Shown here: in pieces, positions 454 through 12,851 of the stretch
Layout of the letters: the number at the start of each line of letters is the position of its first letter
How positions within the stretch are numbered: the first letter of the stretch is position 1
DNA from: Candidatus Heimdallarchaeota archaeon
GTDB taxonomy: Archaea > Asgardarchaeota > Heimdallarchaeia > Heimdallarchaeales > Heimdallarchaeaceae
Reading direction: 5' to 3'
DNA: 64,000 bases
Assembly (NCBI GenBank): GCA_018238545.1
Contig: JABCTC010000010.1
Coordinates: 1 to 64,000 of the forward strand
The notes under the pieces: model-generated
The model's input: the letters and a program-made list of their open reading frames with translations, nothing else
What the model was told of the DNA's origin: nothing
Database searches by the model: none
Made by a program: the position numbers and the translations under genes

Positions 454-3354
454 GTGCCCATGCGAAAAAAAGCCAAGCAAACAGAATTTTTAACTCAAAA
501 ATACTTGTGTCCTCATCATCTTTCAGAAGATAAAATAAGTGGGGGACTCAATACTGATATCAGATTTGGTTTACATGATGATGAAGCAGTTAAACGATTA
601 AAACAATATGGTCCTAATGTAATTCCTAAAATCAAAGGATCAATTTGGGAGATATATCTAGCTCCATTGTTTAATTGGTTAATCAATATCTATCTGATTG
701 TTTCTTCTATTCTAATATTCATGGCAATATGGGTAGACGGCGTTATTGGGCAAATTGGCTTTTGGTTAATAATAATTGTTTTCAATATTGGTTTTACAAT
801 TTTTCAACAAATAAGAGCTCAATTCAAATTGGATGCATTACACAAGCTAGCTGCTCCGAGATCTACAGTAATACGAGATGGTGTCCCTAGACAAATAGTT
901 GCTGTAGATTTGGTACCTGGTGACTTAATTGAATTGGATCAAGGAGATAGGGTTCCTGCCGATGCAAGAATAATCTATTCAAGTAATTGTTTAGCAAATG
1001 AAAGCGCATTAACAGGAGAATCGGTAGCTGTTGAAAAGAATCACAAGCCCAAAAATACTCTTCAAGAAGATACTCCTATATCGCTTAGAGTTAATATGCT
1101 CTATACTGGTACATTTGTTGAAGTAGGTAGGGCAAATGCTATAGTAGTAAATACAGGCATTTATACAGAAATTGGAAAATTATCAACAGAATTACAAAAG
1201 ATAGGAACTACAGATATCCCGATTCGAGCTAAAGTAAACAGATTAGCTAAATGGTTGGGATTAACTGTTCTAGCTTATCTGGTGATTTCAATAATATACA
1301 AAACAATCTATTATTACACTATTGGAGGAGATATACCTCTACCAAATCAGATTGTAGATTCTATAACAACTTCAATGGCGATTATGCCTATTAGTATCCC
1401 TCTATTGACGACTTTGATATTACTTACTGGAGTATTATCGATGGCAAAAGACAGAGTGATAATTCGGAATCTTTCTGCGGTAGAGACATTAGGTAGAAGT
1501 TCTGTTCTATGCAGCGATAAAACAGGAACTATAACAACTAATATGATGACTATCCAAAGGATCTGGGATACAAGTCAATTTTATGGTGTGTCAGGAATAG
1601 GATACAGTAACAAAGGTGCTATAGTTCCTCTTGGTGATGAACCGGGAAATTTCTCGGAAGACATGTATATACCTGACACGATAAAACCTTTTGCAGAAGA
1701 TTCAAAATTAGAGTATTTGCTTGTTGGAGGTATGTTAAATAATAATGCTCATTTGATTGTAGAAGAAGTTTTCGAACCTCATCATCAAGTCTCTTGGAAA
1801 ACTACTGGAGATCCTACAGATGGGGCATTTTTAGCATTATTCAATAAATCAGGATTAAATGAGAAGGAAACTAAAAAACAATATGGATACATTATGGAAT
1901 ATAATTTTGATTCAACATTGAAACGAATGAGTAAAACCTATCAAGATAAGGAAGGGTACTCACTTTTTTGCAAAGGTGCAACAGAGACCATTTTACCTTT
2001 ATGTAATAGGATTGGTAGTCCATCAGATTACAAGGAATTAACAGTTGAAGATACTAGGAAAATAAATGATTATGTTAGTGAGTTTGCATCAAAAGGTTAC
2101 AGAGTAATTTCTTTAGCAATAAGACCAATGGATAAAGATACGCTGTTAAGTCATGATAGAGCAGAATCAGAACAAGAATTAATTTACAATGGTTTTGTTT
2201 GTATGTTAGATCCAGCTCGATATGGTGTTGGTGACGCAGTGAATGAGTGTTACAAAGCTGGTGTTACTACAATAATGATAACAGGCGATAGTCCACTGAC
2301 TGCAAAAGCAATTGCTAAAGATGTAGGGATAGTTCAAAAAGATGAACTAGCAATAGAAGGAAATGATATAGCAAAACTTTCAGACGAAGAATTCTTCAAC
2401 ACAAGAATATTTGCAAGAGTTTCCCCACAACATAAACAAGTGATCATAGCAAAATATCAAAGCAAAGGTAAAATCGTATCTATGACAGGTGATGGTGTAA
2501 ATGATTCCTTAGCCCTAACAATGGCTGATGTTGGAATTTGTATGGGAATTGCTGGTACTGAAACAGCGAAACAAGCTTCTGATGTTATCATAGCTGATGA
2601 TAGTTTTACCAGTACTGTTTTAGGTATCAGAGAGGGGAGGGGATTGTTTAACCGCATTAGAATTATGATTTTCTTTTACATTGCATTAAACATAGCTGAA
2701 GCAATTTTATATTTCTCTAGCTCTTTTATTCCTGATTTTGCACTTGTTACAAGTTTTCAGAGAGTTTATATTTTCTCCACTGCTCATTTAATCCCGCCCT
2801 TTGCCTTTATTTTTGATAGTATAACTCAGGAAATAATGGAATATCCTCCAAGAGATGATGAAGACATTTTCAACAGACGCTATATAGGCGCTCTTGTAGT
2901 ACTTGCACTTTCTCTAGCATTCGCAGCTGGATTGATCTACTTCTTAGCCTTTTTTGGTATTATACCTACAACAACTAACCCGTTGAATGAAGTTAGTCTA
3001 CTAGCAGATTTGCAACAAGCTAAAGCAAGAACTATGTTTATTTCAATAATCGTCATTTCAGAAAGTTTAGTTGTGTTAGTGCTACGTCGACTGAACAAAC
3101 CTGTTCATAGATCCATAAAAGAAGATTGGAGATGGGTAGTTATGTTACTTGTAATAATTGTGCCGATTCTACATATTTTCCTAATGTACTCTGGTTGGCT
3201 CCAAGACATTGTTCTCATATTCTTTGATGACCCTTATGTTTTTATGCCACTTGGATTTACGGATTGGTTGATTGTTATAGGTGCAATAGCTATTCCTCTT
3301 ACAGCAATAGAAATTTACAAATGGATTGTCAGAAGGAGGAATAAATACTTCTAG
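454..3354 (+). CDS. P-type ATPase, P2 (SERCA-like) scaffold with atypical transport site
   Basis: TGES, CSDKTGT phosphorylation site, KGATE, MITGD and TGDGVND motifs, about 10 TM segments. TM4 reads PISIP instead of PEGLP. Confidence 0.95.
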   Translation: MPMRKKAKQTEFLTQKYLCPHHLSEDKISGGLNTDIRFGLHDDEAVKRLKQYGPNVIPKIKGSIWEIYLAPLFNWLINIYLIVSSILIFMAIWVDGVIGQIGFWLIIIVFNIGFTIFQQIRAQFKLDALHKLAAPRSTVIRDGVPRQIVAVDLVPGDLIELDQGDRVPADARIIYSSNCLANESALTGESVAVEKNHKPKNTLQEDTPISLRVNMLYTGTFVEVGRANAIVVNTGIYTEIGKLSTELQKIGTTDIPIRAKVNRLAKWLGLTVLAYLVISIIYKTIYYYTIGGDIPLPNQIVDSITTSMAIMPISIPLLTTLILLTGVLSMAKDRVIIRNLSAVETLGRSSVLCSDKTGTITTNMMTIQRIWDTSQFYGVSGIGYSNKGAIVPLGDEPGNFSEDMYIPDTIKPFAEDSKLEYLLVGGMLNNNAHLIVEEVFEPHHQVSWKTTGDPTDGAFLALFNKSGLNEKETKKQYGYIMEYNFDSTLKRMSKTYQDKEGYSLFCKGATETILPLCNRIGSPSDYKELTVEDTRKINDYVSEFASKGYRVISLAIRPMDKDTLLSHDRAESEQELIYNGFVCMLDPARYGVGDAVNECYKAGVTTIMITGDSPLTAKAIAKDVGIVQKDELAIEGNDIAKLSDEEFFNTRIFARVSPQHKQVIIAKYQSKGKIVSMTGDGVNDSLALTMADVGICMGIAGTETAKQASDVIIADDSFTSTVLGIREGRGLFNRIRIMIFFYIALNIAEAILYFSSSFIPDFALVTSFQRVYIFSTAHLIPPFAFIFDSITQEIMEYPPRDDEDIFNRRYIGALVVLALSLAFAAGLIYFLAFFGIIPTTTNPLNEVSLLADLQQAKARTMFISIIVISESLVVLVLRRLNKPVHRSIKEDWRWVVMLLVIIVPILHIFLMYSGWLQDIVLIFFDDPYVFMPLGFTDWLIVIGAIAIPLTAIEIYKWIVRRRNKYF

Positions 3355-3582: not shown

Positions 3583-4314
3583 TTGCTAATGGATTCAAAT
3601 CACAAAAAGAAACTACTTATTTGCCGCGAAACCGACATTATTTGTACGGGTGGAGTAGTATTCATTGGTGATGGTGCAGTTGGAAAGACTCATACAGCTT
3701 TGAATTTGGCTAGTTATAAGAAAGGATCATTCCATACTGCTGATTGTGCTAACTTATCCAAATCCGTTAATTTGGAATTCGATTACTTCATTCTCTATTC
3801 AAATATTGAAAAATACAAAGTAACTATAAGTTCTCAATTATTCATAATGCCTGGACAGAAAGGGAGAGCTGAAGCTGGGGAAGGATTAGCTTTTGAAGAT
3901 GCGGTTGACATGTACTTCAACGTAAGAAGTATAAATGATGTAATAGCACTAATGTTAACCTATAATCTTGCTGATATTAGAACCTTTCAAAATTTAGAAT
4001 ATTGGTTAAACAGAGCAATTGATCACGAGTTGATCTCAGATTATACTAGCATAATATTACTTGGAACACATCTTGATCATGTTATTTCATCGGATGTTTC
4101 TGCCAATATGGTTGCAGATGGTGAAGTTTTTGTCAGACAAAGAATAGATGATAAACTTGGTATAGATATGGGTTCGGATAGAATAAGTTCAGTGGAGATT
4201 TCTAATTTACATAGAACGGGAATTGATGAACTACAAGATAGCGTGTCAAAAGCCTTCTTCAGGGCATTTGAGATAGAAAAAGTAGTATATGGGGTAATAA
4301 GTCAAGATAATTAG
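3583..4314 (+). CDS. Divergent Ras-superfamily small GTPase
   Basis: G1 GDGAVGKT, G3-like IMPGQ, G4-like GTHLD, G5-like ISNL..TGI. Probable start is the ATG at 3589. Confidence 0.8.
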   Translation: MLMDSNHKKKLLICRETDIICTGGVVFIGDGAVGKTHTALNLASYKKGSFHTADCANLSKSVNLEFDYFILYSNIEKYKVTISSQLFIMPGQKGRAEAGEGLAFEDAVDMYFNVRSINDVIALMLTYNLADIRTFQNLEYWLNRAIDHELISDYTSIILLGTHLDHVISSDVSANMVADGEVFVRQRIDDKLGIDMGSDRISSVEISNLHRTGIDELQDSVSKAFFRAFEIEKVVYGVISQDN

Positions 4315-4453: not shown

Positions 4454-7400
4454 ATGTCTAAAAATATGTCAAAATTATTATCAATTTTTATAGTTACATT
4501 ATTCGTCAGTTCACTAATCTATTTTGAACCTTCATTAAATAACGAAAATATAACTGATTCAGTATTTCCTAATGAACCTATTCTTCCAGACAATGATAAT
4601 GAATCTGATGAAAATATAAATGACGAGGATGATAGTGGAACAACTCCTATAAAGAAGTTAGAAATTCCCGGAGACTACAAATCTTTCGCTTTTTTCAGTG
4701 GCGGCGGAACAGAACAAGGACTAGAACTAATCGCTGATCCAGAAGGGGAAGAGCAAATCTACTGGGGTGATTCAAGAGAAAATGTTATCGTATGGGAAAC
4801 ATATGATGATATCAAAGATGATGCTTATTTGGCTAAGGAACTATACTGGAGAGCACTAAGTACAGCATCTCATACTTGGCCTACTCAAGCAAATGTATGG
4901 TTTCATATGCACGAACAAAATTACCCTGATGAACCTTCAAAAATGTTCAGTCCAGTTTTCTCTGAAGATTGGTATATAAGTGGAAGAGTACATTATTTAA
5001 CTTATCTTGAAACGTCAACTTTTTCTGAATCAATAACAATAGGTGTAAGATTAAGTGTTCACCTTTTCAACCCAGCTGATCAAAGCACCTCCTTAATTAC
5101 ATCAACAACATTTACCGTTCCAATATCTTATGCTATGACTCAAAGGACCTTTTCTTCTGACATAGCTTCACCAGTATTAATTCCTGCTGGCTATAGGTTA
5201 AAGTATGACATTGAGTTAAGATTTAGCAGTATCCCTACTACTGGTTCTGTACTAATGTTCACTGGATATCCTGTTGGTGGAGGAGGATCGATGACTTGGA
5301 ATATAGTCGATGGGATTTATTCCAACAGTTATACTTTATTAAACAGAACTAGGATGTCAGGTGTTCAGTTGTACATGAGGAAAGATGTTTATCCCGATAT
5401 ACAGATTTTCAATGCTGTAAATGAGACAGTATATTCTTCAGCTAGAGATATAACAATTGATGTAACAGATGGTTCAACAAGTAGTTTTAGATGGAATGGG
5501 AATCCTGTCTGGACTCCATTTGACAATGATACTTTAACTTCATTGCCTTTAGTACATGGATGGAATACTTTAGAAGTGAAAGCAAGCGATCCAATTTACA
5601 ATAACACGATAGTAGAGCTTTATCAGTTTGGTTATGATGAATCTCCAGTTAATGTTGTTTTAGATAATGCTATAAATAACTCAGTTATAGCTGGTGATTA
5701 TGATCTCCAGTTCAGCGTCTATAATATAACCTCTGCAAAGTATAGGTGGGATGGTAGTGGCCCTCAAATAGATTTCAATTCACCTTATAATATTACGGCA
5801 GATAATTTTGAAGGCTTACATGATTTAAGAATCATTACAACTGATTTCTATACTGAGGAGTCATATTATTACAAGTTCACTTTTGATTCTACGGCACCTA
5901 CCATGATTTTACAATCACCAAGCAATAATACTTTACAAGCTCCAAGAAAATCAATTAATATAGATGTTAACGATTCATCAGGAGTTGACGTAGTTACTTA
6001 TCACTGGGATGCAGATGCGGAAGCACTGTTGAACCTTATTGGTGGTATTACCTATAGAACATTCTTACCCTCTGCAGGAGGGTGGCATGATCTGTATGTT
6101 ACTGCAAATGATACCCATGGAAATCAAGTAACTTCATATTATACTTTCTTTACAGATCCAACCATACTTAATGTAGAATTAAGATATATGATAGATGATT
6201 CATATTTTGTTGGTGGTAATGATGTCGAGGTTACAATAACTTCTTCAAATGATACAATAAAATATCAATGGGATAATGATGTTTTTTGGAAAGATAAACT
6301 TGACGCAGTTTGGGATGGTACATATCTTAAACTTACGAATGTAGAAGGATTGCCTTCAACTCTAGGTGTTCACATTTTAAAAATTCGAACAGGTGATCTT
6401 TCACATGTTGAACATATTTTTACTTTTAAATTCACAGTAGATCAGCAAGCACCAGAGTATGATATTTCTGTGTTCAATTATAGTAATTTAAGATATTTGG
6501 GGTCTGAAGCACTCACGTTTACTGTAACAGACAATTATACACTTTCAGCTGAAATCTTAATGGACATTTCAGTCGATGGAGGATTTAATCAATCTCTATT
6601 GTTTCCTTTCATGCTACCACTATTTTCATTCTTTGATGGTAACCATAGCATTGTGATATATGTTTGGGATGTTGCCGGTAATGTGAACGTGACAACAATA
6701 TATGTTATAGTTGATAACACAGCTCCATATATAGATTATCTTATCACAGAACTAGTCAATTATATTCATGTAGATGGCAATAGATATGTACCAGCAGATG
6801 CTCTAGTTGATGTCACACTAACAGATGCGGATTCAACTCTTTTCAGTTATTATTCAATCAATGGAACAGCATTTTTACCATTCATTTCCGATTTTAATCT
6901 AGGTTTTCTTGAAGGTTTTCTAGAAGTAACTGTAAGAGCAAATGATAGCTTAGGTAATCAATTTGATTTGCTTTTTAGTTTAATTCTTGATAATAGTCCT
7001 CCAACATTGAATCTCATCTTTCCATTTAACTATATTTCAGAAATAAATGACCTAACACCCTTGCAATTCAATACACAAGATCTTTCTGATAAAACAATCG
7101 ATTCAGTTGAATATGAATGGGATATCTTTCCAGGATTCACAGCAAATGCATATCCTGAAACAGATGGCGATTTCGAATTCAAACTGCTCTTATTTATACA
7201 AGATGCTTATGCACCAGGTAGTACTGCACAATTGACATTTTATCTTGAAGATATAGTTGGAAATATTGCTATAACTAAGTATAATTTTACTGTTGATAAA
7301 ACAAAACCAATTGATTCATTCTACATTTTTAATGAAACTATTCTAGACTATGAACACATTAGTCAGTTTTATTATGTACAAGGAAACACAGAAATTATTT

Positions 7401-9292
7401 ATGACAATACAGAAAATGATGATGTTCTTAAGCTGGAATATTATTGGGATGGAAACACATCAGAGGGAGCGGTTATAGTACTTCTGAATGGGACAAACCT
7501 ATTTCCGTGGTTCATAAATGTACCCACAATTGATGGAGAACACAATTTAACAATCAAGCTATATGATAATACAGGCGAAGATCAATATCCAAATATCAGA
7601 ACTGAAACTTATTTCTTAAAAGTCGATGATATAACGATTAACTATATTACACCCACTGATTTTTCAAACAACTACCATACAACAATCTTGTATGAGGAAA
7701 GTTTCAATTTTAGGATAAATGTTACAGATACTTTAGATGGGCAACCTCTTGATAATGTGAATATCTCTTATAACTACGATTCCACCTACAATCTCAGTTT
7801 TGAAATTGTCCAGATTGATAATATAACTTATGATTTTACAATAACGGCTTATAACGTAACAAATGGTTTAGAAACAGAAATTGAATTTTATATCTCTCAA
7901 TATGCTGACCATAAAGATATGATTGTTATACATCTTAGGGTTGATAAGAGAGAAGGGAATTTACTTGTCTTGCAAGGTGGTTATGATAGTCTTTACTATG
8001 ATAGTATAACCAATCTCACACTGCAATTGAATGATCATTTGAACATTTCTGCTCAAGAGATTCTAAGCATTACAGTAAATGGTACTGAAGTATCTTTTCT
8101 ATATTTTTCAGAAAATAAAACAGCAAGTATCTCTCTCTATATACCTGATTTTATTGATAAGCAAGGCAATTATACTTTCGAAATTTACGTAGAGTCCTCA
8201 GAATATTTTGATACAATGATTGATTCCTCTATTATTACTATAGATGTAAAACCAATGTTAGTTCTATTAGATGTATGGGTATTAAATTCAACAATTCTAG
8301 AAGGTAATCCTGTATCAATTATGGCAAATCTAACCTTAACGGATGGAACACCAGTAGCATTTGTGGAAATTTATTTTATAATTTATATCTACCTAAAAAC
8401 CAGTCCAGAACTTCCATCTACGGTTGTTCGACTATCTTTTGAGGATTCTGACTACAATGATACACAACATGCAGATACTGGATCTAATGGTTTGGCATTT
8501 TTATCTTATACTCTGAACTCCAACATTTCTTCAATCAAAATAGAAGCTGGATTTCTGGGTGATGACACACGGGATCAAACACAATTTACATTTGATGGCA
8601 TAGTGATTACATATCCACCTCCTGAAGCTGAAGAGCTCCCTGTCTGGCTATTAGCTTTAATAATAGGTGGAAGCATTTTAATTGCTGGAATCATCTCCTT
8701 CATTATTTACAAAGCTACACGACCTAAACCTTTCGAAGAATTAATGAAGAAAATAACTGATGAGGAAATAGTTCTAAATTATTCTATTCTCTCTCCTGGT
8801 ATTATGTTGTCAATATTTGATCAACGGAAAGGTCCGATTCCATTAGTAACTGATCATTCTTTGAGTGTTGGTCGATACTTGGGAAGAATGCAGATTGGAA
8901 TAGAAAATTTTCTACTTAAAATTGCAGATCAAGCTTATTCCAGCTTAGGTTTTGAGGAACATACCAATGAGAGGAGAGTTGGATCGATAGTACTACCTAG
9001 TGAGAAAATGATCGGATTTTTGCAAGGTATTCAACTAAAGAATCCTCAATCTCGAGGAGGTTTTGAGAATCTTTCTCTGATAGTTCTTGCTGATAGAGAA
9101 TATGGAAACCTACTTCTTAACTACCAAGAGTATCTTTATCCAAAAATAGATGAATTGGAAGTTGCACTCAAAGGTAAAGATACTCTGAAGAAAGTAGAAG
9201 AGTTGATGAAAGAAATCCGTAAGATATCTGTGATAATTGTCCTCGCTGCCCAAAAAGCTGAAAAAGCACAAGAAAACGGAAATAATTCATAA
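4454..9292 (+). CDS. Large single-pass membrane protein: signal/anchor, Ig-like beta-repeat ectodomain, TM helix, cytoplasmic uDENN/longin (folliculin-like) domain
   Basis: Hydrophobic N-terminus. Repeated 'Y.WD', 'G.H.L.....D..GN' and 'D.T.P' Ig-like motifs with many NxS/T sequons. TM LPVWLLALIIGGSILIAGIISFIIY at about 8636-8710, followed by LSIFDQRKGP and LKNPQSRGG. Confidence 0.8.
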   Translation: MSKNMSKLLSIFIVTLFVSSLIYFEPSLNNENITDSVFPNEPILPDNDNESDENINDEDDSGTTPIKKLEIPGDYKSFAFFSGGGTEQGLELIADPEGEEQIYWGDSRENVIVWETYDDIKDDAYLAKELYWRALSTASHTWPTQANVWFHMHEQNYPDEPSKMFSPVFSEDWYISGRVHYLTYLETSTFSESITIGVRLSVHLFNPADQSTSLITSTTFTVPISYAMTQRTFSSDIASPVLIPAGYRLKYDIELRFSSIPTTGSVLMFTGYPVGGGGSMTWNIVDGIYSNSYTLLNRTRMSGVQLYMRKDVYPDIQIFNAVNETVYSSARDITIDVTDGSTSSFRWNGNPVWTPFDNDTLTSLPLVHGWNTLEVKASDPIYNNTIVELYQFGYDESPVNVVLDNAINNSVIAGDYDLQFSVYNITSAKYRWDGSGPQIDFNSPYNITADNFEGLHDLRIITTDFYTEESYYYKFTFDSTAPTMILQSPSNNTLQAPRKSINIDVNDSSGVDVVTYHWDADAEALLNLIGGITYRTFLPSAGGWHDLYVTANDTHGNQVTSYYTFFTDPTILNVELRYMIDDSYFVGGNDVEVTITSSNDTIKYQWDNDVFWKDKLDAVWDGTYLKLTNVEGLPSTLGVHILKIRTGDLSHVEHIFTFKFTVDQQAPEYDISVFNYSNLRYLGSEALTFTVTDNYTLSAEILMDISVDGGFNQSLLFPFMLPLFSFFDGNHSIVIYVWDVAGNVNVTTIYVIVDNTAPYIDYLITELVNYIHVDGNRYVPADALVDVTLTDADSTLFSYYSINGTAFLPFISDFNLGFLEGFLEVTVRANDSLGNQFDLLFSLILDNSPPTLNLIFPFNYISEINDLTPLQFNTQDLSDKTIDSVEYEWDIFPGFTANAYPETDGDFEFKLLLFIQDAYAPGSTAQLTFYLEDIVGNIAITKYNFTVDKTKPIDSFYIFNETILDYEHISQFYYVQGNTEIIYDNTENDDVLKLEYYWDGNTSEGAVIVLLNGTNLFPWFINVPTIDGEHNLTIKLYDNTGEDQYPNIRTETYFLKVDDITINYITPTDFSNNYHTTILYEESFNFRINVTDTLDGQPLDNVNISYNYDSTYNLSFEIVQIDNITYDFTITAYNVTNGLETEIEFYISQYADHKDMIVIHLRVDKREGNLLVLQGGYDSLYYDSITNLTLQLNDHLNISAQEILSITVNGTEVSFLYFSENKTASISLYIPDFIDKQGNYTFEIYVESSEYFDTMIDSSIITIDVKPMLVLLDVWVLNSTILEGNPVSIMANLTLTDGTPVAFVEIYFIIYIYLKTSPELPSTVVRLSFEDSDYNDTQHADTGSNGLAFLSYTLNSNISSIKIEAGFLGDDTRDQTQFTFDGIVITYPPPEAEELPVWLLALIIGGSILIAGIISFIIYKATRPKPFEELMKKITDEEIVLNYSILSPGIMLSIFDQRKGPIPLVTDHSLSVGRYLGRMQIGIENFLLKIADQAYSSLGFEEHTNERRVGSIVLPSEKMIGFLQGIQLKNPQSRGGFENLSLIVLADREYGNLLLNYQEYLYPKIDELEVALKGKDTLKKVEELMKEIRKISVIIVLAAQKAEKAQENGNNS

Positions 9293-9392: not shown

Positions 9393-11123
9393 ATGTCATA
9401 CCTATTCGATGAAATATACGGCAAAAATGAAGAAGCTCCTGCTATCGAAGATAAGATTCTACTTATGGGTCTCCAAGCTGCAGGGAAAACCGCAATAAAA
9501 GACGTGGTTTTCTTCAATAAATCTCCAGAAGATATGGAAGATTACATGGCTACAGTACACTATCAACGTCATTTTATTGACGAAGAAAAATCAAGTATGG
9601 TTATTGATTCAGGTGGCCAAGAAAGTTATTGGAACGAAGCTGTAACACATTTTCGACATCTTGTATTTTCAAATGTCAAGTTACTTATGTGGATTGTTGA
9701 TGTCACTCATCCCGAGATGTTTGAAGAATCAGAAAGAAGATTCAGTTTTACAATACGACAATATAAAAAAGAAAACCCCAATGGAAAAATAACTGTATTG
9801 TGTCACAAAGTAGATCTTGTACCACCAGAGAGAATGGTAGTTATTCATCAACACATACGAGAATCATTTGATGATCCCCGTTTTGAAATAGATTATGAGA
9901 ATACAAGTATCTATTACGGAGAAAGTCTAAAGGAATTAGTTTTTACAATTATGGCTGAAGCTGGTATCGATACTAAACGATTTGAGTTAATTTCCAACTT
10001 AGGTCAGAAAGTGGAGGAAAGTGATGAGTTCCAAAGCTATCTTATGGAACATAAAGAAGATCCAAGAATTGAACAGCTTTTAGATTTTCTCAAACCTGAA
10101 GCTGATATTACATTACCCACATTTGGTAATTTAGATCTACAATTTGACTTAACAGAATATGGCATTGTAGAAATTGTTCTTATTGATAGGGACACATTTT
10201 CTCCTATAGTAGGTGCATCCTCTAAAACCGATGTTTCAACACAAAATTCAATGGATTATCTAATCGCTCTTCATGATTTCAAACGTTATGTTAAGGAGAA
10301 GAGTCAAGAGATTGAGCCCACGGGAACTATAGTTACATCATCAAATGAAAAAGTTCATGGAATGATTTTCAATCTTGCTAGTAATTTCTTACTTGTAACT
10401 TCTTTCTCTGAAATTACAGAAGAGAAAAAGAAAATGTTTTTTGAGCTTATACTCAAGTTTGCAAAATCAACTGCAGATTCAACTCAAGAAACTAAACCTG
10501 AACCAGCTCCTGTTGTTGTTCCAGAATCTGCACCAGTAACAGTTCCTTCAGTTCCTATTACTGAAGAAACAGTAACTGTTGATACTGAACCAATAGTTAT
10601 TGAAAAGACAGTGGAGGTTCCTCACATGGAGATAATAGAAACAGAGTTGGTTGTAGAAGAAGCTAATACTGTTGAACCAGAAATCATGTTACCACCCTCT
10701 CCATCTCCTGTTAAACTTGTTTCAGAGGAAACAGAAGGAGAGAAAGAACAAGTTAAATCAGAACCAATTGAAATAGAGCATATTGAAGAACCTGCTGAGA
10801 CACCAAAAATTCCTGTAGAATCAGAACCCACTATTGTCGAAGAAACTCTAGAAATTTTAACTGAGCCAACAACTCCATCAGTTCTAGAGTCCAATACTGT
10901 ATCAGATATTCTAGATTCAACTGAACCTGTAGCTACACTAAGTGGTATCGGAGATTCAAGTGCAATCAGTTTTTCAGCAGATGATATAAAGGACTTTGCT
11001 AATTTCTTAGTTAACAAGAAAGAAACAGTACTAGAAGAAATATCATTAGATGAGGTTAAAGGTATGTCTGACTTTCTGACAAAAGGATTAGTAGCTGAAG
11101 AAGATGATACAATTGAAGAATAA
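9393..11123 (+). CDS. Rag/Gtr1-family GTPase with roadblock/longin-like domain and acidic disordered tail
   Basis: KILLMGLQAAGKT, ATV, DSGGQ, HKVD and TSIY are Rag signatures (RagA: KVLLMGKSGSGKT, ATI, DCGGQ, HKMD, TSIW). E/P/T/V-rich C-terminal third. Confidence 0.9.
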   Translation: MSYLFDEIYGKNEEAPAIEDKILLMGLQAAGKTAIKDVVFFNKSPEDMEDYMATVHYQRHFIDEEKSSMVIDSGGQESYWNEAVTHFRHLVFSNVKLLMWIVDVTHPEMFEESERRFSFTIRQYKKENPNGKITVLCHKVDLVPPERMVVIHQHIRESFDDPRFEIDYENTSIYYGESLKELVFTIMAEAGIDTKRFELISNLGQKVEESDEFQSYLMEHKEDPRIEQLLDFLKPEADITLPTFGNLDLQFDLTEYGIVEIVLIDRDTFSPIVGASSKTDVSTQNSMDYLIALHDFKRYVKEKSQEIEPTGTIVTSSNEKVHGMIFNLASNFLLVTSFSEITEEKKKMFFELILKFAKSTADSTQETKPEPAPVVVPESAPVTVPSVPITEETVTVDTEPIVIEKTVEVPHMEIIETELVVEEANTVEPEIMLPPSPSPVKLVSEETEGEKEQVKSEPIEIEHIEEPAETPKIPVESEPTIVEETLEILTEPTTPSVLESNTVSDILDSTEPVATLSGIGDSSAISFSADDIKDFANFLVNKKETVLEEISLDEVKGMSDFLTKGLVAEEDDTIEE

Positions 11124-11211: not shown

Positions 11212-12441
11212 TTATACTGGTCGACTGTCACCATATCTTCTATATTCTAGTTGTGCATCTAGGAAGATTGGTATCTCTCGCATCTCTGTAACACATTCAT
11301 GAATAGGATAAATCTCAATAGATGTTGAACCAAATCCTTTCTGAACCTTAATCCCTCTTTCAAGTTGTTCAGAGTTTTCAACTGCCACATCAAGCATTGA
11401 TTTCTGCAGGTTTCTTCCACAAACATCGCACCTAAAACTAATTTTCTTGTCAACTCTTATTTCAACAACCTCGTCTTTAGGAATACTATTTTTTGCTAAA
11501 TAATTGATGAGAGTGTCTTTCATCTTGAGTTTAGCTCTTCCAAGAAGTTCGTCAGGTTGGAATAGTTGTTGCATCTCAACTGCTAAGGTATCGAAATATT
11601 CCTTTTCATTTACTATATCAGTTGCTGGAGGAAAAACGGTTGTTAATACTAAATCTTCATTTATTTCTTTCATATAGACTCTGTTTTCTTCAAAAGAAAA
11701 TATAACATGATCTAAAACTAAAGTTGGTGAAAACATTTTTGCAAGATCATTTTTCAATTTAATGAAATTATATCCAGCATACCTTTCAGGTTGAGAATAT
11801 AACATTAAACCTTGTGCTGTTGATAGCGCAATAAACACTAAATCTTGCTGTTGGAACTTTTCTTTAATTTTACTGGATTTACTGTCATCTTTTGGGTAAA
11901 CATAAGCTAATACTTGTTGCATTGCATCCCATATTGTATCTTCAAAAATTGATGTTCCAATGATTTCTGCGTTTGGGAAATCCTCAATTTCGAAAATCTC
12001 TTTAATTGATTGTAAAACCGATTCTCGTTTATTAGGTGGGACTACATCCATCTTATGTGCAAATACGTATATTCGTGCTTCTCCACTTATCTCTTTTGTA
12101 GATTTAACAGTAAGATCAAAATAGTATTTTGAACGCATGATATTTGATGCATCAGAGATATCAACAACAAAAATCAAAGCTTTTGCATCACTGAATGTTC
12201 TTTCTTTGTATTGATCAAAAACTTCGTTCAAGTAATTGCTCTGCCCGCCGACATCAAAAAGATTAATCGCACTACCTGCAAGATTAAACAATTTCCGGTT
12301 TATACGGACTGTGGCTGGGTTCATTGATGTTGCTTCGGGAGCAAATCCTTCAAAAACAACTTGGCGAATGGAGGTTTTCCCTGATTGAGATAAACCTAAA
12401 ACGACTATCTTCGATTCTAATTCACTAGTACCGCCGTACAT
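11212..12441 (-). CDS. Rag/Gtr1-family GTPase with roadblock-like domain and C-terminal Zn-binding domain
   Basis: GLSQSGKTS, ATV, DVGGQ, HKMD, TSIF; C-terminal CDVCG...HEC. Start moved to the ATG at 12441 (MYGGTSELESK), which follows a GTGAGG RBS-like sequence; the track ORF begins at 12510. Confidence 0.9.
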   Translation of the reverse strand: MYGGTSELESKIVVLGLSQSGKTSIRQVVFEGFAPEATSMNPATVRINRKLFNLAGSAINLFDVGGQSNYLNEVFDQYKERTFSDAKALIFVVDISDASNIMRSKYYFDLTVKSTKEISGEARIYVFAHKMDVVPPNKRESVLQSIKEIFEIEDFPNAEIIGTSIFEDTIWDAMQQVLAYVYPKDDSKSSKIKEKFQQQDLVFIALSTAQGLMLYSQPERYAGYNFIKLKNDLAKMFSPTLVLDHVIFSFEENRVYMKEINEDLVLTTVFPPATDIVNEKEYFDTLAVEMQQLFQPDELLGRAKLKMKDTLINYLAKNSIPKDEVVEIRVDKKISFRCDVCGRNLQKSMLDVAVENSEQLERGIKVQKGFGSTSIEIYPIHECVTEMREIPIFLDAQLEYRRYGDSRPV

Positions 12442-12851
12442 TATCCTCACAACTACAACGTTTTTTTTCTTATAAAAAATTAATGTTACTCCAAATAGTA
12501 TGTATTGCACTTCTTTATATACAATTTTTTCTAGATTAGAAAAATCAAACTATTATTCGAAATAAGAATTCGTGTTTATGATTCTTTAATTCTCAATGCA
12601 ATCTCATCCATTTGCCTTGTACTGGCATCTAGAACATTATTTTGGAGTTTGTATTAAGGAGATCTTATTAGAAGATATCTCTTCTTTCCGATTTATTTCT
12701 TTATTTCCCTAAGGACCTTCTTGTATCGGGCACCTTTTTAGTAGGTAACTAGCGTTGCATCATAATGAAACAGCGTATTTCAGAATAATCTTATTATTTT
12801 TTCAAATAACTTTATATTTCCATTTTTGATTGTACAATTTGAGTAGATTAC

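Follow-up and report, generated by a model that had tools for sequence, protein, structure and literature searches.

An Asgard subfamily of P2A-related P-type ATPases with a conserved Glu–His pair at the membrane site

The window analyzed here, a 64,000-nucleotide stretch of DNA from a Candidatus Heimdallarchaeota archaeon (contig JABCTC010000010.1, assembly GCA_018238545.1), carries a P-type ATPase gene at its start, referred to below as the pump. An earlier note, made from the letters alone, had described it as a P2-type ATPase with a P4-flippase-like motif in transmembrane helix (TM) 4 and lost Ca2+ ligands. The true start of the reading frame is probably ATG 460, giving 964 residues, because P0002, the closest relative with 96% identity, has its MRKK start two codons further on. 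The Pfam scan of the pump found Cation_ATPase_N, E1-E2_ATPase, Cation_ATPase, Hydrolase, and Cation_ATPase_C, which is the full P2/P3-type set. DKTGT, TGES, GDGxND, and a HAD-like P domain place the protein in the P-type (E1-E2) superfamily, and TIGR01494 gave 243 bits against a cut-off of 62. The following features were located, and the motif coordinates were verified through codon translation.

454..3354 (+): P-type ATPase gene, 966 residues from GTG 454, stop codon included, no internal stop
1012..1023 (+): A-domain dephosphorylation motif TGES (T187–S190), of the P2/P3 type, unlike the DGET of P4 pumps
1387..1401 (+): P312-I-S-I-P316 in TM4, where the helix is unwound; P-I-N-I-P in the family consensus
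1516..1530 (+): phosphorylation motif DKTGT (D355)
2488..2505 (+): P-domain hinge motif GDGVND (G679–D684), followed by S-L-A-L, versus A-P-A-L in P2A pumps
2689..2700 (+): TM5 NIAE (N746..E749), both P2A site-I ligand positions kept
2758..2796 (+): TM6 Q769–P781, QRVYIFSTAHLIP, in which F774, A777, and H778 replace the P2A N, T, and D
2785-2787 (+): codon of H778 in TM6
3061..3063 (+): E870 in TM8, a column that holds E or Q in P2A-like pumps and that the earlier note did not name

The catalytic machinery is intact, as had been claimed: translation confirmed TGES, DKTGT with Asp355, and GDGVND at the positions listed. For the membrane site, residue equivalences were taken from a HMMER alignment to Listeria LMCA1 and from column counts over 41 P2A-like proteins. 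Ile313 of the pump occupies the position of the Ca2+-ligand Glu in PEGLP (the E309 position), a column with Glu in 40/41 P2A-like proteins. The neighboring Ser314 stands where 39/41 have Gly. In TM6, Phe774 replaces Asn (40/41) and Ala777 replaces Thr (39/41). His778 takes the place of an Asp found in 39/41 P2A-like, 2/2 P3A, and 4/4 P3B proteins. Translation, alignment, and column counts thus agree with the earlier reading of TM4 as PISIP instead of the P2A motif PEGLP (PINIP in the family), and the LMCA1 alignment and the 41 P2A-like rows bear out the N→F, T→A, and D→H exchanges, by which the pump lacks the N..(T)D ligands of P2A pumps in TM6. The N..E ligands of TM5 are present, Asn746 and Glu749 being common to the pump and the P2A columns. 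The earlier note gave these two as the ligands that remain; Glu870 in TM8, which it did not list, also falls in a P2A E/Q column, which we take to be the position of SERCA Glu908.

A word-indexed search returned 120 relatives with 42–96% identity, whose source names comprise Heimdall-, Hod-, Thor-, Odin-, and Promethearchaeota. Across the 116 full-length relatives, Pro312, Ile313, Ile315, and Pro316 are each invariant (116/116), as are Glu749 and His778, and Asn746 is found in 115/116. Gln769, Tyr772, and Pro781 in TM6 are also conserved. Position 314 is variable, with Asn in 88 relatives, Ser in 23, and Thr in two; Ala and Met also occur. Of the two features singled out in the earlier note for comparison among Asgard homologues, His778 is therefore universal and PISI is not, PINIP being found in 88/116. 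TGES is present in all 119 family sequences covering that region. Glu870 is kept in 40 of the 44 family representatives and is replaced by Ile in one subclade. In that subclade (L139, L150, and L151, from G255, G102, and G207; TM4 SVVPINIP), Ile-Pro stands in place of TM8 Glu-Ser/Thr, and the membrane site is thereby down to Asn/Glu/His.

The separation of the family from ordinary pumps extends beyond the membrane site. About 20 further positions distinguish it from P2A-like pumps, for example Pro→Leu after GDGVND(A/S), so that GDGVNDAPAL becomes ..(A/S)LAL, Asn→Ser in DDNF (DDSF), and Thr→Ile in the TPL loop. When 1.84 billion cluster representatives were searched exhaustively with HMMER, about 45 clusters (50% identity) showed a common pattern of TM4 Px(N/S)x(P/V), TM5 N..E, and TM6 His. 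Near 470 bits, the matches change sharply to ordinary PEGLP / N..E / N..TD pumps. The residue pattern is far beyond chance and is conserved family-wide. Decay of the gene into a pseudogene, the refutation envisaged in the earlier note, was considered and rejected, because the substitutions are conserved across Asgard homologues and are not unique to one sequence.

Of 300 genomes sampled from the window's phylum, 210 have a relative (E <= 1e-150), and so do 71 of the 89 high-quality genomes among them. None of 653 sampled genomes of three other archaeal phyla (251, 201, and 201) matched at E <= 1e-140. The named clusters among distant family members are from Promethearchaeota, Helarchaeota, and one Korarchaeota. 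Two copies are present in some families, at times in tandem, and many genomes of family f14 have two. These two-copy genomes suggest sub-specialization. Tandem duplicates were seen at L148:7806-13714 (G263:C18) and G025:C86:1223-7492; the L148 copies differ in their pocket-lining residues (MDLLPINIP/NVFE/TVHIFPG versus MGIMPINLP/NLME/IVHSLPA). The genome of the window also encodes three CPC-type P1B pumps and a canonical P2A Ca2+ pump (L003, G000:C11:26711-30283) with AVPEGLP, NFDE, and NLLTDALP. The gene at 454..3354 is therefore a paralogue with a job of its own, and not the sole Ca2+ pump of the genome.

The position of the family was examined with an IQ-TREE tree of 94 rows (44 family, 41 P2A-like, two P3A, four P3B, and three P1B sequences from the window's own genome as the root), which holds no P2B, P2C, or P2D rows and no eukaryotic sequences, P4 and P5 included. 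A TIGR01106 search for true P2C pumps gave none above the cut-off, so no P2C row entered the tree. The P2A-like references came from a profile scan of contigs with the family alignment and the generic patterns DKTGT and GDGxND; among the matches listed in that scan, there were only ordinary P2A pumps, with 28–35% identity. The family formed one clade, with a Shimodaira–Hasegawa-like approximate likelihood ratio (SH-aLRT) support of 100. The phylogeny proposed in the earlier note, run here with P2A, P3A, P3B, and P1B rows, grouped the family with the P2A-like rows (support 98) and left P3A and P3B outside. The family rows had been chosen by motif, so a second tree was computed with the columns of TM4, TM5-6, and TM8 left out. 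In it, the family was again one clade, with a support of 88. The rows with Ser, Thr, Ala, or Met at position 314 around the pump made up a terminal clade of seven rows (support 100) nested deep among PIN rows. P-I-S is thus a local, derived variant, and PINIP is the family consensus.

Grouping with the P2A-like rows, together with the Cation_ATPase_N and Cation_ATPase_C domains, assigns the pump to the broad P2 lineage. It scored below the equivalog level of P2A pumps, with 420 bits on the PMR1-type model TIGR01522 (cut-off 798) and 384 bits on the SERCA-type model TIGR01116 (cut-off 703), whereas canonical P2A representatives reach 658–821 bits. The P3A model TIGR01647 gave 305 bits against a cut-off of 615. 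On the NCBIfam P4 model TIGR01652, the pump scored 91.5 bits (cut-off 431), and six family members scored 86–114 bits versus 91–110 bits for four canonical P2A pumps. The P5 model behaved similarly, with 198–285 bits for the family and 218–265 bits for canonical P2A pumps. As both models score alike on the family and on P2A pumps, the family has no extra affinity to either of these eukaryote-only classes. The 2023 superfamily review states that prokaryotes have no counterparts of P4 and P5 pumps (PMC10654040).

The AlphaFold2 (AF2) model of the pump has the ten-TM P2 fold, with a mean predicted local distance difference test score (pLDDT) of 81.8 and a predicted template modeling score (pTM) of 0.75. 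Its TM4 helix is broken or unwound at residues 311–314. The best Foldseek matches in the PDB were SPCA1, SERCA, LMCA1, and the Na,K- and H,K-ATPases, with TM-scores (template modeling scores) up to 0.79; the identity of the pump to the solved chains is only 25–28%. No P4 or P5 entry was found among the top 50 matches. Overall, the family is a distinct subfamily, an offshoot of the P2A-type Ca2+ pumps, and most Asgard archaea have it.

Among known systems, the P2A Ca2+-ATPases (Listeria LMCA1, PDB 6zhf/9euq; SPCA1/PMR1; SERCA1/2) gave the best sequence, hidden Markov model (HMM), and fold matches. The family shares with them the five-domain Pfam set, the three catalytic motifs, the ten-TM fold, the PxxxP frame of TM4, the N..E of TM5, and the Glu of TM8. 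It differs from them by PEGLP→PI(N/S)IP in TM4, by N..TD→F..AH in TM6, by the additional family positions described above, and by its separate, well-supported clade.

P3A H+ pumps have few polar membrane residues, and the key protonatable one sits in TM6. The family resembles these pumps (AHA2/Pma1 and the cyanobacterial and methanogen homologues) in the hydrophobic residue at the E309 position, in the retained second Pro (PVAMP/PIAMP in P3A versus PINIP in the family), and in the small number of polar membrane residues with one protonatable residue at the matching TM6 position. Unlike P3A pumps, it has His rather than Asp at that position (Asp in both P3A references), keeps the P2A N..E of TM5, and lacks the P3A Arg of TM5, position 742 being Tyr or Phe. 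Together with the tree and the TIGR01647 score below its cut-off, these differences place the family outside P3A.

The hallmarks of P4 flippases are DGET in the A domain, PISL in TM4 without a second Pro, and a Lys in TM5. The family shares with ATP8A1, Drs2, and Dnf1 the aliphatic Ile after the TM4 Pro, and only the Heimdall-group lineage of the pump also has the Ser that follows it. Hydrophobicity at the E309 position does not mark out P4 pumps, because the P3A references (PVAMP) share it. Unlike P4 pumps, the family retains the second TM4 Pro (P316) that is typical of P2/P3 pumps, has TGES instead of DGET, and holds Val, Ile, or Leu at position 745 in place of the TM5 Lys. The PhoLip_ATPase_N and PhoLip_ATPase_C domains were absent from the pump in the Pfam scan. 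A search for the CDC50/LEM3 subunit (PF03381) gave no match in the 92%-complete genome, and the control genomes were equally without a match. Judged from the residues, an invariant buried Glu–His pair with Asn is what one would expect of an ion or proton site, not of a lipid groove. The flippase-like reading of the earlier note and the lipid transport proposed with it are thus not supported by motifs or profile scores. Its suggestion of an intermediate between P2 and P4 ATPases found no support either, in an analysis whose tree covered P2A-like, P3A, P3B, and P1B rows.

With the above results in hand, we infer both the transport activity and the substrate of the pump from its residues. They suggest, and we hold with moderate confidence, that it is a functional P2A-derived pump that most likely carries a single small cation, not Ca2+, at a Glu–His pocket resembling site I. 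The non-Ca2+ specificity advanced in the earlier note is a reasonable inference, as the canonical ligands of site II are gone and the substitutions are conserved across Asgard homologues. An ordinary E1-E2 cycle would be expected, with phosphorylation of Asp355, TGES-driven dephosphorylation, and TM4 unwound at the proline. By the alignment, the side-chain ligands of Ca2+ site II have all been swapped for hydrophobic or small residues (the PEGLP Glu for Ile, the TM6 Asn for Phe, and the TM6 Thr for Ala), and the site-I positions in TM5 (Asn and Glu) and usually in TM8 (Glu) are retained. The central TM6 Asp is now an invariant His, and TM4 has gained an Asn (Ser in the lineage of the pump) beside the unwound stretch. 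One small cation could then be bound and moved at a rebuilt pocket centered on Glu749–His778. Its firm core would be Glu749–His778 with Asn746, because one subclade has lost the TM8 Glu.

Within this reading, H+ may be the first candidate, by analogy with P3A pumps, because in these, too, the residue at the E309 position is hydrophobic and the TM6 position holds a single residue that can be protonated. A borderline metal that favors His, Glu, and Asn ligands (Mn2+, Fe2+, Zn2+, Ni2+, or Co2+) would come second, and Na+ or K+ third. Several points weigh against a small-cation pump of this kind. The pocket geometry was derived from alignment to P2A ligand positions. One subclade lacks Glu870, and any of Asn, Ser, Thr, Ala, and Met may stand at position 314. 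The firm core of Glu749, His778, and mostly Asn746 offers few ligands for a divalent metal. We know of no characterized P2/P3 pump with His as the central residue, and the analogy is weak for this reason. Finally, the gene neighbors at 21 loci are conserved only within lineages and are functionally unrelated to the pump, and no RNA data turned up among the sequencing runs listed.

What defines a P-type ATPase subtype is its membrane site, and to our knowledge every new site so far has meant new transport chemistry. Likewise, we know of no characterized P2/P3 precedent for a strictly conserved Glu–His pocket. A stronger version of the small-cation reading is worth stating, although we regard it as rather doubtful: the PINIP/His clade would be a new P-type subtype, whose Glu–His site carries its substrate in a way seen in no characterized P2/P3 pump. 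If true, it might be a His-based electrogenic H+ pump, which would mean eukaryote-style membrane energization by a P-type pump in Asgard archaea, independent of P3A. The other option would be a pump for a transition metal on a P2 scaffold.

The first rival is that the pump still carries Ca2+ (or Ca2+ and Mn2+) through an alternative single site, made of the TM5 Asn and Glu, the TM8 Glu, and the backbone carbonyls of unwound TM4, with His as a hydrogen-bond partner. In its favor, the family keeps three of the five site-I positions of SERCA, the best HMMs and folds overall are those of Ca2+ pumps, and the relatives are labeled as Ca2+-transporting ATPases by their sources, though this annotation is automatic. 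Against this stands the replacement of the TM6 Asp, nearly universal in the P2A-like columns, by an invariant His. The one-site Ca2+ pumps LMCA1, SPCA, and PMCA keep site II and not site I, and site II is the one lost here. With a canonical P2A pump already in the genome and all Ca2+ equivalog models scoring far under their cut-offs, we find Ca2+ transport unlikely.

The Glu/His/Asn pocket could also hold an organic cation, such as a polyamine, or some other non-metal solute, in a P5B-like manner. The site is novel, its carboxylate and His/Asn could hydrogen-bond amines, and the P5 score is not negligible. That score is equaled by canonical P2A pumps, however, and neither the PPxLP motif nor the P5 architecture is present. 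The bulky hydrophobic residues (Ile and Phe) would probably fill the site rather than open it. Such a substrate is, in our view, distinctly unlikely.

Most of the ligands are lost, which could also fit a protein that transports nothing and acts as an ATP-hydrolyzing sensor or regulator, or that cycles with His as a built-in cation. In some pumps, the place of an ion is taken by a built-in positive charge, such as the TM5 Lys or Arg of KdpB, the H,K-ATPase, and P3A pumps. This explanation is nevertheless highly improbable: the catalytic and coupling machinery and the polar membrane residues are strictly conserved phylum-wide, and tandem and dispersed paralogues are retained, which together suggest a selected transport function. 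A lipid flippase or proto-P4 ATPase, in which the TM4 Ile would gate the head group of an (archaeal) lipid in the way of PISL flippases, can point to the P-I-S of one lineage and to the loss of the site II ligands, yet it is hardly credible in view of the derived state of that P-I-S, the absent P4 motifs and domains, the P4 scores and fold matches, and a Glu–His pair typical of ion sites; the clade is just as implausible as a prokaryotic forerunner of P4 flippases.

To describe the neighborhoods, the genes around 21 loci of the family were clustered, and the neighbors were scanned with Pfam. Synteny across these loci was lineage-specific only. In the taxonomic family of the window, a nucleotidyltransferase and a KaiC-like gene belong to the conserved neighborhood; in another family, a subtilase, a UFM1-ligase-like gene, and a pantoate transferase do. 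The neighbors at the 21 loci include neither a partner subunit nor a metal regulator, chaperone, or lipid enzyme.

Some of the neighbors deserve a mention in their own right. Three small-GTPase-like genes adjoin the pump, at 3583-4314 (+), 9393-11123 (+), and 11212-12510 (-). The first is a weak Ras/Roc match, and the other two are clear members of the Gtr1/RagA family (E 1e-25 and 1e-32), with 576 and 432 residues and long C-terminal extensions. All three are typical of the Asgard GTPases known as eukaryotic signature proteins. Between them, at 4454-9292 (+), lies an open reading frame of 1612 residues, in which Pfam found nothing but a weakly matching Big_13 Ig-like domain; at L133 and L134, in two more genomes of the same family, the pump is followed by a relative of this reading frame (cluster 20). 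In one Asgard family, the gene directly downstream of the pump (L138:10725-12710 (+), with counterparts at L140, L146, and L152) matches the E3 UFM1-protein ligase 1 domain (E 1.5e-10), a component of a eukaryote-type ubiquitin-like system.

Full-text literature searches gave no description of the clade; their coverage is limited, so this is not proof of its absence from the literature. A census of Asgard transporters lists only "orthologs of a putative Ca2+ ATPase (TC 3.A.3.2.21)" (PMC7997004), and the 2023 review of the P-type superfamily does not mention the clade (PMC10654040). Its members are annotated only as "cation" or "Ca2+" ATPases. The clade is apparently a large, mostly Asgard, uncharacterized offshoot of the calcium-pump family.

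On present evidence, the clade would not explain the origin of lipid flippases. Its interest lies elsewhere: Asgard archaea are the closest known archaeal relatives of eukaryotes, and the clade is present in most of the sampled Asgard genomes. Identification of the substrate would correct a phylum-wide annotation and give a textbook pump family one more specificity class. It would also bear on ion handling or membrane energization in the archaeal ancestors of eukaryotes.

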